A stretch of 38,812 nucleotides of DNA, from IMG/VR virus record IMGVR_UViG_3300014656_000011, positions 1-38,812 of that record. One strand, written 5' to 3'. How positions within the stretch are numbered: the first letter of the stretch is position 1; each line of letters opens with the position of its first letter. Under the pieces are notes generated by a model. It saw nothing but the letters and a program-made list of their open reading frames with translations, had not been told where the DNA came from and did no database searches. Shown piece after piece: positions 29,096 through 34,255 of this stretch. Origin of the DNA: a virus. Taxonomy: Duplodnaviria > Caudoviricetes. The position numbers and the translations under genes were made by a program.

Positions 29096-31414
29096 TTAAA
29101 AGTTTGCTTTAATTCCTAATCTCCCTGCTTGTATAACCCCTGTGCTACTTGAAGCTGTTTCAACTCCTTCCATAAAATTATCTTTTTTATTTATTATTTG
29201 TGCTAGGTCTTCGGAAAACTTATCCATTCCTACAAGTGCATAGATTAAACTCATAAACCAGTGGTCTGCTCCTTTTCTTTTCCATACCCACCTCCAACCA
29301 TATTGTGGGTCGTTCTCATCTTTACCACTAATCTCTTTTACTCTATAAACATTTAAACAATGTTCAAAGAAAGGTTGCCAATCTTCACTACTTCCATTAA
29401 ACATTATTCTTTGTTCATTTAGTTGGTCCACTGCTAACTGTATCGTTCTGTTTCTATCTACTAATACTTTTCCGTGTTCATCATTTTCCCCCCATCTTAT
29501 AAGTTGTTTGCTTTTAGTTTCTTTTACAAACCATACTAGGAATACTCTACCTTTATATTTAGTTTGTAACTTTCTAATTCCAATTAAGTCTCCCCCTTGG
29601 TCAGCTACAAGTATCCAGTTTGGATTTGTGTATAGTAACTTATCTATCTCATCATAAGGGTCATAGTCTGGGTCATTTACTTCTTGAGGACTTTGACAAT
29701 AACCGTGATAGAAGACTCCTTGCTTATTCATTAAAGTATAATATATATCGTGTCCTGTATCTACTCCAATAACTACTCTGTTTTCTTGTGAATTAGTTTC
29801 AGGAGTTAAACACTTTGTTAAGGCTAACGTAGAAAGCTTATCATTTGGGCTTACATAAGGTTCTCCTAACCATTTCTGTTTGTATAGAACAGGTCTTTTT
29901 AACTTATCATCTTCAATCTCTTTTTTAATAACATCAGGAAGAAATCCATACTTCTCTGCTATATCATAGTTAACATTAATGATTAAAGTATTAGGTCTTC
30001 CTTCTTCAACTAACCTTGTGTGAACTGGGTCGCTAACATTTAATCTGTTGTATGTGTAAATAAGTTGTGAGCCTACTTCACGGATTGTTGGGGTTAATAC
30101 TTCTAAACTTTTCTTAGTGATAGTTTGTGCTTCTTCAATCCAAGCTATGTTAATACCTTCAATAGATTTAAGAGATTGTTCATTGTTCCAAAGTCCTTTG
30201 AAGATAAAGTCTGAACCAGTAATCTTATTAGTGATAGTTTTATCTGTAATACTAAAGTCGTTTAGTCCATATTGTTTAATCAAGTCAGATAATAATTGAT
30301 GGGAACTTTCAGCAATAGAGTTTTGGAACTCTCTAAAACAACCTATTCTTATTTTCTTTTCTCTTGCTTTAATTAAAAGAACTCTCGCTACTGTGTGAGA
30401 TTTCATTGAGTTACTAACATTCACTCCATTAGCAAAATAGTTATGATACTTTTCAGTTTCAATACTCCAAACATCTACTGATTCATAGACTTTCTTAACT
30501 CTAATCCTACCTTTCTTGCTTCCTGTGGTGTTTGTTTCTTGTGAGGGTAATCTACCTGTAAGTGTTTCCAAGTTCTCCCACTTAGCAAATCCCTTATCCC
30601 ATCGTAATTCAATCCAGTCTTGTTCTTTAGAAGTTCTGCCATCATTCTTATTGGCATCTTTGGATTTTGTAAGCGAAATTGTAGCAATTCTCTGGCTTCT
30701 TTCTCTGTTATCTTCCTTAAATTCTTTCCCTGTGTAGATTGGTCTGTCCTTAACCCCGTCTTCCAAAGATGAATGGATTGTTCCTGTCTTGTCGCCCACT
30801 CCAAGTTGTTTACTCTGTTGTCTGTTTTTATTCCGTTTTTGTGATTGACTGTTTCCTTTTTCTTCAAGTTCGGAATAAATGTTCTTGCTATTATTCTGTG
30901 TAATACTTGAGACTTTCTTCCTACAACTGTCATTAAATAACCGCTGTGGTTGATTGATGGTTTCATCACTTTTGTTTTGTAACCACCCTTGTAACTCGTT
31001 GTTAGTATCCTCCCCATATTGCTTACATAGTAATTCAAGGGTTCGTTTTTGGCTTGAATCCATAATTCCCCAGACAAGCTGATAGATTGGAATATAGGTT
31101 TTCCCATTAAAGTATTTGTGGTCATAAGTAGTCTTAGTGATAGTTCCATTTATTTCTAATTCAAACATTGGTTTCGGTTCAAAGTTTGCTTCAAAACTAT
31201 CTATACTATTGACTATATCATAATCTCCAACCAAAGACAATACTTTATCCCCCACCACAATATCACTAATTCTTTTAAAAGAACCATCATACATTGAAAT
31301 TATTGTATCGCCATCAAAACAATATCTTCCACCATAAACGGCTGCTTCTCTCCAATCACTGTCAAACAGTCTCTGGTATTCTATTGGTATCTCCATTATT
31401 ATTTGCTGTGTCAT
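29096..31414 (-). CDS. terL: Terminase large subunit (PBSX/SPP1-type ATPase domain) with an intein; 772-aa precursor, 468 aa after splicing
   Basis: Walker A GGRY^SMKSH split by the intein; REFQNSIAES, KSIEG, Walker B AWIEEAQ, PTIR; nuclease VIGVDTG. Confidence 0.95.
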   Translation of the reverse strand: MTQQIIMEIPIEYQRLFDSDWREAAVYGGRYCFDGDTIISMYDGSFKRISDIVVGDKVLSLVGDYDIVNSIDSFEANFEPKPMFELEINGTITKTTYDHKYFNGKTYIPIYQLVWGIMDSSQKRTLELLCKQYGEDTNNELQGWLQNKSDETINQPQRLFNDSCRKKVSSITQNNSKNIYSELEEKGNSQSQKRNKNRQQSKQLGVGDKTGTIHSSLEDGVKDRPIYTGKEFKEDNRERSQRIATISLTKSKDANKNDGRTSKEQDWIELRWDKGFAKWENLETLTGRLPSQETNTTGSKKGRIRVKKVYESVDVWSIETEKYHNYFANGVNVSNSMKSHTVARVLLIKAREKKIRIGCFREFQNSIAESSHQLLSDLIKQYGLNDFSITDKTITNKITGSDFIFKGLWNNEQSLKSIEGINIAWIEEAQTITKKSLEVLTPTIREVGSQLIYTYNRLNVSDPVHTRLVEEGRPNTLIINVNYDIAEKYGFLPDVIKKEIEDDKLKRPVLYKQKWLGEPYVSPNDKLSTLALTKCLTPETNSQENRVVIGVDTGHDIYYTLMNKQGVFYHGYCQSPQEVNDPDYDPYDEIDKLLYTNPNWILVADQGGDLIGIRKLQTKYKGRVFLVWFVKETKSKQLIRWGENDEHGKVLVDRNRTIQLAVDQLNEQRIMFNGSSEDWQPFFEHCLNVYRVKEISGKDENDPQYGWRWVWKRKGADHWFMSLIYALVGMDKFSEDLAQIINKKDNFMEGVETASSSTGVIQAGRLGIKANF
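30410..31321 (-). mobile_element. Intein (304 aa, precursor residues 32-335) in the TerL Walker A motif
   Basis: Block A CFDGDTII, block B TTYDHKYF, blocks F/G VWSIETEKYHNYFANGVNVSN, +1 residue Ser. Confidence 0.92.
30475..31107 (-). CDS. NUMOD4-HNH-HTH homing endonuclease nested in the +1 frame inside the intein (start 31107, or up to 31149)
   Basis: ELW...YYVSNMGRI (NUMOD4), LHRIIARTFIPN...VNHKNGIKTDNRVNNLEWAT (HNH), KITEKEA...GRTWKHL (C-terminal HTH). Confidence 0.9.
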   Translation of the reverse strand: MGKPIFQSISLSGELWIQAKNEPLNYYVSNMGRILTTSYKGGYKTKVMKPSINHSGYLMTVVGRKSQVLHRIIARTFIPNLKKKETVNHKNGIKTDNRVNNLEWATRQEQSIHLWKTGLRTDQSTQGKNLRKITEKEARELLQFRLQNPKMPIRMMAELLKNKTGLNYDGIRDLLSGRTWKHLQVDYPHKKQTPQEARKVGLELRKSMNQ

Positions 31415-31835
31415 CTTTTTTATCTAAGAATTTAACTAGGACAGGAACAACTATATTAATTTTACTATTCTCATCTTGTGAGTATATTCCTTTTATCTTA
31501 TAAGCTGAATCTAAATATTTATGTCTAACAGCATAATCAGGTTCATAACCTACTTCTTCAACTTCTCCTGTTGAATTATTATTTTTAAATATAGTTTTTC
31601 CTGCATTTAATCCTTCTTTATGAACCTTTACTAAGTCTTCATCTGGTATCTGTTCTGCTATTGACATAATAGCTTTTTGTATCTTAGGTTTTGCTAAGTT
31701 TTCAACAGCCATAACACCAGCAACGTTTTCGCTTTTCGTATTATAGTTATTTAGAATAGATTGAGTTCCATTACCAGTCTTTATCCAATCTTTTACAAAA
31801 CCTTTTTCTTTTTTAGATAGTGTTTCTCCTTTCAT
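31362..31835 (-). CDS. terS: Terminase small subunit
   Basis: LSKKEKGFVKDWIKTGNGTQS...A..NLAKPKIQKAI; directly upstream of TerL. Confidence 0.9.
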   Translation of the reverse strand: MKGETLSKKEKGFVKDWIKTGNGTQSILNNYNTKSENVAGVMAVENLAKPKIQKAIMSIAEQIPDEDLVKVHKEGLNAGKTIFKNNNSTGEVEEVGYEPDYAVRHKYLDSAYKIKGIYSQDENSKINIVVPVLVKFLDKKDDTANNNGDTNRIPETV

Positions 31836-32306: not shown

Positions 32307-33800
32307 TTAAAAAGGTCTTTTAGCTTGTAATTGCATCATTAATAATTCTTCTTCTGATTTTTTAGGAATACATACGACCACTCCACAGGTTAATATAGTT
32401 CCTGCAAGAGATACTGCATTTCTAACTGCATTTTTTATAACTGCTGATGAGTCTATAACATCTTCATTCCAGTTTGGTTCTTCTATATTCATATTCTTTA
32501 GGTTTTGTATATATGGAGCTTTTAGTGCTTTAGACAATATCTTTCCTGCTTCTGTATCTGGTAATGTATCGGCTACATTTAAAAGACAAACACCACCACC
32601 TTTAACTACTCCGTCCTTTAAAGCTAACATACTTGAATTGATAGCATCTTTTGTCTTTAACCTTATGTAAGATAATTCACTCTCGCTATTTGCTCCTAAT
32701 TTAAGTATAGCTGTTTTTGTCTGTAACCAAGATAATCTTAATTTAGAATCATTATCTTTATTTTCTTTTAATTGTGCTATATGTTCTGAAAAGTCTACAC
32801 TAGGGATTATTATTGTTTCGTCTTTATCTACTGTTATTTTAGCACAAGTTCCCAAATGACTTAATCCTAAGTTCTTAAAGTTTATTCCTGTTGCATCTTC
32901 TACAATAGTTGCTCCTACTACTTTAGAGAAGTCCTCAAATATATAATTTTTAAACAATACAGAAGCTTTGATTATAAGAATATTCATTACTTTATCTTTG
33001 TGAGCTTTAACCATAATAGAAGCTACTTCTGAATCCATATCATCTGTAAATATAACTAAGTCTTTTTTGCCTTGTTTATTTAGTTCTTCTATAAGTGGAT
33101 TTATATCATTTAAATGTCCTATCTTTCTTTTTGTTACTAAAATTGTTGGGTTTTCATATATTGCTTTTGTTTCTGTTTTGTTATCTTTTACTGCTTCTTT
33201 GTCGTGAACCATAGCTGGAGATAGAAAACCACAATCATTAAACTTTACTCCGTTTGTTATAGAGTATGTTGTTTCGTATGTTCCACTTGCTTCTGGGCTA
33301 ATTATTCCTTCTTTTCCTATCTTTTGGTAAATTTCTCCTATAAGATTACCCATTTCTTTGTTTTCTCCTGCTATTGTTGCAATATTGTTTACTTCTTTTT
33401 CTGTTATTGTTTGTTTTACTTTGTCTATTTCTTTTTCTACAACAGGGATTAATAAATCTAATTCTTTTTTAAGTTCCATTCCTGTAAGTTTAGATTTATT
33501 ATTTATTATCTCACTTGTAATAATACAAGTAGTTTTTCTTCCATCTCCTGAATCTTTGTCTTGCTTATCCATTAACTCTTTGATTAGTCCTAAACCTCTC
33601 TTTTGCACTGGTTCTTCTGTTTGTATAGCTTGTATAATAGTTTGAGCATCGTTTGCTATCTCGTGATAAGGGTAGTTTTCGTTTTCTACAATAACATTTA
33701 TTCCTTTAGCCCCATAAGTAGGCTTAATAGGGTCAATCGCAAGATTAACTCCTTCTATTAATAAATCTATTGCTTCTTGTCCTGTTTTTACATTATTCAT
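32307..33800 (-). CDS. groEL: Phage-encoded GroEL-like chaperonin (likely start MNNVKTG at 33800, 497 aa)
   Basis: TYGAKGINVIVE, ANDA, GDGRKTT, YENPTILVT, LKLGANSESEL...KDAINS...GVVKGGG. Confidence 0.9.
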   Translation of the reverse strand: MNNVKTGQEAIDLLIEGVNLAIDPIKPTYGAKGINVIVENENYPYHEIANDAQTIIQAIQTEEPVQKRGLGLIKELMDKQDKDSGDGRKTTCIITSEIINNKSKLTGMELKKELDLLIPVVEKEIDKVKQTITEKEVNNIATIAGENKEMGNLIGEIYQKIGKEGIISPEASGTYETTYSITNGVKFNDCGFLSPAMVHDKEAVKDNKTETKAIYENPTILVTKRKIGHLNDINPLIEELNKQGKKDLVIFTDDMDSEVASIMVKAHKDKVMNILIIKASVLFKNYIFEDFSKVVGATIVEDATGINFKNLGLSHLGTCAKITVDKDETIIIPSVDFSEHIAQLKENKDNDSKLRLSWLQTKTAILKLGANSESELSYIRLKTKDAINSSMLALKDGVVKGGGVCLLNVADTLPDTEAGKILSKALKAPYIQNLKNMNIEEPNWNEDVIDSSAVIKNAVRNAVSLAGTILTCGVVVCIPKKSEEELLMMQLQAKRPF

Positions 33801-34062
33801 AAGGATTATATTTGTATTCGTGATAAAAAAGTGGGTGTTGTGGTGGTAAAGCTTGTCTTCCGTGATACGAAAGATATTCCACATTGTTTACTCTACCGTC
33901 TGATACTTTGAAGAATTGTCTATCTCCACATATTTCGCATACTTCAACAACTCCGTCTATGTATTGTTTTTGTATTTTATATCTATGTAGGTAACTATTT
34001 AGACATATCGATTTTCCCAAGAATAAATCTTGAGTCTTCTGGTATGATGTAGTGTTTTTCAT
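33793..34062 (-). CDS. Zinc-ribbon-like protein between groES and groEL (start uncertain)
   Basis: C....LHRY...VCEICG; stop overlaps the groEL start. Confidence 0.6.
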   Translation of the reverse strand: MKNTTSYQKTQDLFLGKSICLNSYLHRYKIQKQYIDGVVEVCEICGDRQFFKVSDGRVNNVEYLSYHGRQALPPQHPLFYHEYKYNPYE

Positions 34063-34255
34063 CTTTTATGTTTAGTTTATTTATTCCCCATATAGTGTAT
34101 CCAATAATATCTCCTACTTCTACTTTCTCAACCTCATCTCCAATAGCTAGAACTTCTCCATATTCACAAAGTGTTCCTTCTGAACTTTGAAGGATAGTAT
34201 CAGTTACTTGTGGTTTTACTAATATATTATTTCCGAAAGGTGTTATCTTATTCAT
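33995..34255 (-). CDS. groES: GroES-like co-chaperonin
   Basis: ITPFGNNILVKP, GEVLAIG, VEVGDII, YIIPED..ILG. Confidence 0.88.
   Translation of the reverse strand: MNKITPFGNNILVKPQVTDTILQSSEGTLCEYGEVLAIGDEVEKVEVGDIIGYTIWGINKLNIKDEKHYIIPEDSRFILGKIDMSK

Follow-up and report, generated by a model that had tools for sequence, protein, structure and literature searches.

How can the gene for an essential phage packaging enzyme stay open across the 216 codons of a second gene written on the same strand in another reading frame? This question is raised by terL of the AT-rich phage contig IMGVR_UViG_3300014656_000011, analysed here over its whole 38,812 nt (the window; 31% GC, genes on the minus strand, as are all terL, intein and HNH features given below for it). 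terL (29096..31414) encodes a 772-amino-acid precursor of a PBSX-type terminase large subunit, and within it a +1 frame (30475..31125) encodes an HNH endonuclease. It had been predicted that synonymous codons of this HNH gene are selected to keep the TerL frame open. We consider it highly probable that a contiguous intein interrupts the Walker A motif of the terminase, that its +1 frame encodes an I-HmuI-like NUMOD4-HNH protein with likely translation of its own and a likely role in homing, and that the codon signature, as we infer, marks selection that keeps nonsense mutations out of the essential terminase frame.

The long frame matched Pfam Terminase_3 (PF04466, 1.7e-30; TIGR01547 above cut-off) and, weakly, Hint. 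Sixteen close terL alleles lacking an intein (L002-L017; fetched loci carry L numbers and proteins P numbers) read GGR[YF]S[LM]KS contiguously with an exact DNA junction, which fixes a 304-amino-acid intein at 31321-30410 inside Walker A. The N-extein (31 amino acids, 31322..31414) ends with the first half of the motif, GGRY, and the C-extein (29096..30409) runs from Ser-Met-Lys-Ser through the rest of Walker A and the ATPase and nuclease domains. Class 1 inteins have Cys or Ser at position 1, TxxH in block B, a terminal Asn and Ser, Thr or Cys at +1. The window's element has Cys1, block B T65-Y-D-H68 (31118..31129), a C-terminal Ser-Asn and a +1 Ser, and it scored above the TIGR01443 cut-off; C1, T65-H68 and N304 were invariant in 16/16 aligned inteins, the +1 residue being Ser. 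An AlphaFold model of the two intein ends gave a Hint domain, with a predicted local distance difference test score (pLDDT) of 83-94 for residues 1-100 and 86-94 for residues 271-304, and inteins and intein-like domains were its top Foldseek matches (best E=4e-4). Between these ends, intein residues 109-268 (30518..30997) form a linker predicted to be disordered (pLDDT<50 at 109-233 and 242-268), of which mainly freedom from stops seems to be required. The C-terminal splicing region, residues 270-304 (30410..30514), begins with a strand whose coding DNA overlaps that of the final HNH helix. Judging from sequence and model, we predict a class-1-type intein that would be excised by protein splicing. 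A group I intron carrying an HNH open reading frame was rejected, as no Rfam match came near threshold in 29900-31600 and intein motifs are present.

The nested gene encodes 216 amino acids from ATG 31125 to a TAG stop at 30477-30475, with alternative ATGs at 31149 and 31107, and has a NUMOD4-HNH-helix-turn-helix arrangement. Its NUMOD4 motif (30934..31068; PF07463, 6e-5) and HNH_3 catalytic core (30775..30903; PF13392, 3.8e-11) were both above cut-off. The NUMOD4 part overlaps the structured end of the N-terminal splicing region of the intein, where amino-acid constraint acts in both frames. Comparison of the window with L001 gave a nonsynonymous divergence (dN) of 0.11 against a synonymous divergence (dS) of 0.94, indicating purifying selection on the HNH frame; the third frame over the same region contains 27 stops. 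The protein model (pLDDT 85) had a sole significant structural match, I-HmuI (PDB 1U3E; E=4e-7), which was also its only significant sequence match (E=1.6e-5). I-HmuI is intron-encoded. Its H75, which we take to be the catalytic His, aligns with H95 of the window protein. The nested HNH is likely to be the homing endonuclease of the intein.

The HNH frame lies +1 base relative to TerL, such that each HNH third base and the next two bases make a TerL codon. The original prediction was right that a T-ending HNH codon before one starting AA, AG or GA (a risk junction) creates a TerL-frame stop, and all 17 C-ending codon pairs that it quoted are present in the gene. There is a further pair, ATC-AGC, and risk junctions also hold 33 A-ending and 23 G-ending codons. 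Counted from ATG 31107, pyrimidine-ending codons at risk junctions comprise 18 C and 0 T; T-ending codons do appear freely elsewhere, with 14 C and 35 T at non-risk junctions (Fisher p=5e-8 versus risk junctions). Risk junctions in 33 other coding stretches of the window hold 871 T and 195 C, i.e. 82% T (p=1e-13 versus HNH), without any context bias of this kind (p=0.10), which eliminates a genome-wide context bias as the cause. Shuffling of synonymous codons according to genome usage gave a mean of 19.9 TerL-frame stops (minimum 8), and permutation of the gene's own codons a mean of 9.8 (minimum 2); neither left the frame open once in 20,000 trials. Shuffled sequences never stayed stop-free and the bias is not genome-wide, as had been predicted. 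The absence of T at risk junctions is, however, just another way of stating that the TerL frame is open and is circular when taken alone; the controls described below remove this circularity. Two facts do not depend on it: the HNH protein is real and conserved, and T is preferred at non-risk sites as it is in the genome (T share 16/25 versus 781/1168, p=0.83).

Relatives of the HNH protein were collected by tblastn over fetched loci; their counts are lower bounds. At least 286 distinct relatives were found, at least 30 of them (the window included) with 0 host-frame stops over the match and at least 256 with two or more, the median of the latter being 0.13 host-frame stops per codon. All 30 stop-free loci carry intein motifs on their flanks. 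Pattern matching located the N-terminal Cys in 29 of them and, in 27, the C-terminal junction; junctions of L289 and L029 were resolved separately, and L135 is cut by the contig end. These open-frame inteins lie at the Walker A motifs of several TerL types, of RecD2-like and RadD-like helicases and of a Rad50-like ATPase. A protein search added a helicase as well as 16 further TerL precursors that share the in-frame product (48-74% identity); in these precursors (P0122-P0137) similarity of the in-frame product suggests that the HNH frame is present as well. P0138, a helicase intein of the same family, has about 45 extra residues before block B.

Among the 256 relatives with stops, an intein profile detected both intein halves around the HNH gene in four loci (L222, L240, L280 and L291). 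These have the frame relation of the window but carry 19, 26, 26 and 28 stops, and T is used at risk junctions in L222, L240 and L291. The same HNH family in the same place thus fills with stops where read-through is not needed, and stop avoidance is absent there. Since all three stop types occur among the four loci, they are split rather than recoded, and an alternative genetic code was discarded. Their N-halves (95-101 amino acids) and C-halves (44-46 amino acids) flank NUMOD4-HNH genes and are candidate natural trans-splicing pairs; the host gene is a helicase or primase-helicase by sequence inspection in L222, L240 and L291, and terL in L280. In such loci the start codon of the C-half is an ATG that overlaps the HNH gene's terminal Trp codon, and the window has TTG at the corresponding place (30571-30569), which raises the question of whether its element, too, works as a split intein whose C-half starts from an internal codon, the open linker being incidental. 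We regard this as very unlikely: Trp forces the codon to N-T-G, ATG is found only in L047 and L048 among contiguous loci in which the codon can be located at the terminal Trp, and the window has 0 stops against 19-28 in the true split loci. A fractured gene or split intein was moreover ruled out for the window by the 772-codon open host frame.

Divergence was compared in four close copies (the window, L001, L027 and L029), which gave a gap-free alignment of 205 codons; proportions of synonymous (pS) and nonsynonymous (pN) differences in the HNH frame were 0.55-0.64 and 0.10-0.18. Among columns with C or T, 0/8 at risk junctions varied, compared with 13/28 at non-risk junctions (p=0.03), and pairwise C/T differences numbered 0/59 and 44/161, respectively. 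Eight positions have T only in copies whose next codon has changed to a non-risk one. In a neutral simulation of 25 silent changes, the frame stayed open in 116 of 20,000 runs. HNH pS was 0.14-0.30 in the first 40 codons, which overlap the structured intein, versus 0.64-0.73 in the rest. Permutation of own codons at each of the 30 nested loci left 0-17 of 1,000 frames open, and 0 in 24 loci; a pooled count of 0 T of 495 over nested loci is circular, the class being defined by its open frame, and was not used as evidence. Two claims of the original prediction are supported by these data. Both frames are real, as indicated by the dN/dS and I-HmuI-like fold of the HNH protein and by the Hint model of a TerL frame that is open in 30 diverged loci. 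Their long co-evolution is supported by a synonymous divergence near saturation and by the genome-like G+C content at third codon positions (GC3) in the non-overlapping part of the intein.

That the pattern stems from a frameshift in the assembly, or from a GC-rich HNH gene imported recently and stop-free by luck, is barely credible. GC composition gives this idea some footing: HNH GC3 is 0.41 versus 0.17 for the genome, and stops can be scarce in non-nested relatives above 52% GC, down to 3.2 per 200 codons. An assembly error had already been doubted, and it is contradicted by run X1, a possible source of the window, whose independent assembly was identical at 2,501/2,501 bases, with no gap and a depth of 137, and by the diverged copies, which share the layout. 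Against luck stand the permutation of the gene's own codons, the 30 diverged loci and the genome-like T share at non-risk sites. Within the intein, GC3 was 18/86 (genome-like) outside the overlap and 89/217 inside it (p=9e-4), which together with the own-codon permutation excludes donor GC composition as the whole cause. Given the genome-like GC3 and the genome-like use of T at non-risk sites, the element has lived under AT pressure while its risk sites stayed C. Artefact or chance is thus refuted for the present-day state, and a GC-rich founder is possible for the origin only. It had also been claimed that stops were purged from the HNH gene; the exclusion of new stops was confirmed, but a past removal of stops was not, because stops can be few in GC-rich free relatives too, and the founder may have come from a genome of higher GC with hardly any stops.

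A second signature may lie in the amino acids of the linker. Codons for Lys, Glu and Gln end in G in 21/48 cases in the HNH gene, compared with 226/1,529 (15%) in the window (p=2e-6), which places Glu, Asp or Gly, not Lys, Asn or Arg, in the TerL-frame linker. The G-ending share was above the regression for free HNH genes in 16/16 loci, but above the locus's own C-extein in 10/16 only (p=0.14), so that selection on linker amino acids is suggestive.

We envisage the following sequence of events. Ribosomes starting at the terL start codon would read 772 codons, the intein ends would fold as a Hint domain around a disordered loop of 160 residues, and splicing would restore GGRY-SMKS. Internal initiation on that mRNA, for which ATG 31125 is the most likely site, would yield the 216-amino-acid nuclease; this would nick or cut intein-free Walker A DNA, and repair would copy the element across. 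Selection would eliminate any silent C-to-T change at a risk junction, since TerL would be cut short, and those C's would stay frozen while other silent sites drift to the AT bias.

Several observations weigh against this scheme, and they concern splicing, translation of the HNH gene, its active site and its spread. A penultimate His is common in inteins but not universal; in the window's clade this residue is Ser, and many relatives have His. No Shine-Dalgarno motif was found before any HNH ATG, and promoter-like matches were at chance level (7 versus 4.3 +/- 2.3). A matched null already yields an ATG at 0.48-0.55 per locus and, as the loci are not independent and represent about a dozen lineages, at only about 0.5 per lineage. 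The residues at the positions of I-HmuI D74 and N96, presumably metal ligands, are N94 and Q116. Finally, repeated loss could also produce the patchy presence of the intein, 11 of 500 shuffles being as low.

With respect to translation, most window genes have A/T-rich leaders without upstream Shine-Dalgarno motifs, which suggests that the host initiates translation without such motifs, and their absence before the HNH gene therefore says little. The start had been placed at 31107, which did not hold: an ATG occurs there in only 2/30 loci, the window and L001, making ATG 31125 the better supported and more likely start. All 30 loci have an ATG 14-31 codons before a conserved E-x-W. It is spelled by the Tyr-Asp codons of block B (31125-31123 in the window) or, where these are TAC-GAC, by a codon pair 7-9 positions upstream (-28 to -30). 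This exchange of the ATG between two positions, kept in 30/30 loci, is hard to reconcile with production of HNH by a +1 ribosomal frameshift from the TerL frame, as an N-extein/N-intein/HNH fusion without a start of its own. By eye, no conserved slippery run was seen in the DNA that leads from the upstream stop to the HNH core. The lack of a Shine-Dalgarno or promoter signal above chance would suit such a frameshift, as would an HNH frame open for 8 codons upstream of ATG 31125, and we judge it unlikely; the HNH protein is likely translated on its own.

The Asn and Gln at the two ligand positions, also found in 32/214 scored non-nested relatives, might mean that the HNH protein of this clade has ceased to be a homing enzyme and is kept as a DNA-binding or packaging helper of the terminase. 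Free-standing relatives do sit beside terL genes, and a terminase-associated role has been raised for the HNH protein of brucellaphages in the available text of PMC4422536. Yet the same element occurs in helicases and a Rad50-like gene, 16 close terL alleles do without it, L103 has its HNH deleted, and the protein model has the fold of an intron-encoded homing endonuclease; a helper function is distinctly unlikely. As for homing, intein presence on a 35-row extein tree required 8 changes, at least 4 of them forced by well-supported branches. This patchy presence fits repeated loss or homing, in which the HNH protein would cleave intein-free alleles.

Other members of the family showed further arrangements. 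The free-standing sister HNH genes of L133, L143, L211 and L137 abut or overlap the terL start. In L139 and L214 about 6 extra bases, an in-frame stop among them, break the Walker A motif of the terL gene that follows a free-standing HNH gene, possibly reflecting bypass, read-through or self-immunity, and in L214 the terL start is duplicated ahead of the HNH gene. L103 (2432-2680) contains the same intein reduced to 164 amino acids, the HNH centre having been deleted in frame; it is a decay product, as expected of intein decay. In L029 (1549-3631, reverse-oriented; protein P0139), a 14-nt deletion joins the HNH frame to the C-intein and C-extein, and the host frame is open under the HNH gene and then stops. 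L029 is a single contig: either a new split intein has arisen that depends on the start codon of the HNH gene, or the gene is dead, or the assembly is faulty. It was the only longer, in-frame form found among close relatives.

These states might belong to one lineage. In a 48-row tree, 18 of 22 fused rows, the window among them, formed one clade (93/91); the fused rows need 4 changes, and their single origin was not rejected (approximately unbiased test, p-AU 0.10). A 121-row HNH tree was a quick one with weak support, and a splicing-domain tree, in which the outgroup did not fall on one side of a branch, placed L280 beside L131/L209 at 85/89. We tentatively propose, without calling it probable, that a single Walker-A-targeting NUMOD4-HNH lineage exists in every capture state: free (L133, L137, L139, L143), splitting (L222, L240, L280, L291), dual-coded (in terminases, helicases and Rad50, as in the window and its relatives), fused in frame (L029) and decayed (L103). 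On this view, dual coding would be an enduring option beside endonucleases encoded in the intein's own frame, with a start borrowed from block B and linker residues under selection (Glu over Lys). If so, the acquisition of homing endonucleases by inteins, as modelled by Dassa and by Gosselin, could be put to a direct test.

Elsewhere in the window, a GroEL-family chaperonin lies at 32307-33884 (PF00118, 4e-25), adjoined by an open reading frame of 86 amino acids (33995-34255) that is GroES-like by eye. The TerL nuclease domain (29096-29900) of the window, L001, P0123 and P0134 is unlike the PF17288 type of most other carriers of the same intein; the terminase is therefore a mosaic.

We then compared the locus with known systems. 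A contiguous host frame with a complete endonuclease open reading frame between the splicing regions, in another frame of the same strand, is found in the window as in published inteins, and this general layout is already in the literature (brucellaphage 2015; Gosselin 2025; Phillips 2026), which limits the surprise. No intein match was found among cultured phage records. The brucellaphage terL intein-encoded HNH is described as out of frame in the available text of PMC4422536, where we found no codon analysis. Brucellaphage Tb (JN939331, ORF7/ORF8) likewise has a contiguous terL intein with a same-strand nested HNH gene at +1 (3170-2347=823). However, its HNH is of the PF01844 type without similarity to that of the window (E=0.08), and the intein follows residue 174 instead of lying at Walker A; by similarity, Pfam family and site, the window element does not belong to that family. 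The accessible text of Gosselin et al. 2025 describes inteins with an out-of-frame endonuclease VII and proposes that an indel could bring such open reading frames into frame. As here, the endonuclease has a separate same-strand frame in a contiguous intein, often in terL, with an unstructured in-frame product and a patchy distribution. Those inteins differ in encoding endonuclease VII in frame 3, not NUMOD4-HNH in the +1 frame, and their second open reading frame typically lies outside the splicing domain, whereas that of the window overlaps structured splicing regions at both ends; the words 'NUMOD' and 'synonymous' are absent from their main text. Phillips, DeSimone and Gogarten (bioRxiv 10.64898/2026.09.14.751524) report, in the text at hand, frame-specific dN/dS for a cyanobacterial dnaX intein with a +2-frame LAGLIDADG endonuclease. 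It resembles the window in its overlapping frames, disordered in-frame linker and purifying selection on the endonuclease frame, and differs in its LAGLIDADG family and cellular host gene. 'HNH' and 'stop codon' are absent from that text, which thus contains no test of stop avoidance.

Two more distant systems complete the comparison. Dassa et al. 2009 (PMC2677866), as far as its accessible part goes, described fractured genes and split inteins with free-standing GIY-YIG and Vsr-like endonucleases, HNH being only predicted. L222, L240, L280 and L291 fit that description, with separate halves and a C-half start overlapping the 3′ end of the endonuclease gene, unlike the contiguous intein of the window. 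The ShiLan domain (Arsenault et al. 2025, PMC11855218, accessible text) is an HNH hidden out of frame in phage methylases; it shares the nesting and the open host frame with the window but has no intein, and its HNH is a zinc-finger type in frame 3. Compared with I-HmuI, the window protein keeps the H75 His, has Asn and Gln in place of D74 and N96, and differs in its C-terminal region. A literature search for inteins with NUMOD4 or for stop-avoidance analyses found neither this family nor such a test, most subscription papers and preprint supplements being outside its reach. Because the in-frame middle contains no domain, annotation pipelines would call such an intein 'decayed', so that counts of such mobile inteins are probably too low. 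Selection acting on an overlapping frame can here be measured cleanly in nature, and the controls are built in, as free-standing and split forms fill the frame with stops; the split, contiguous and half-fused relatives are material for testing how free endonucleases become intein endonucleases. Taken together, what appears to be new in comparison with these systems is an I-HmuI-like family with free, split, fused, half-fused and decayed forms.

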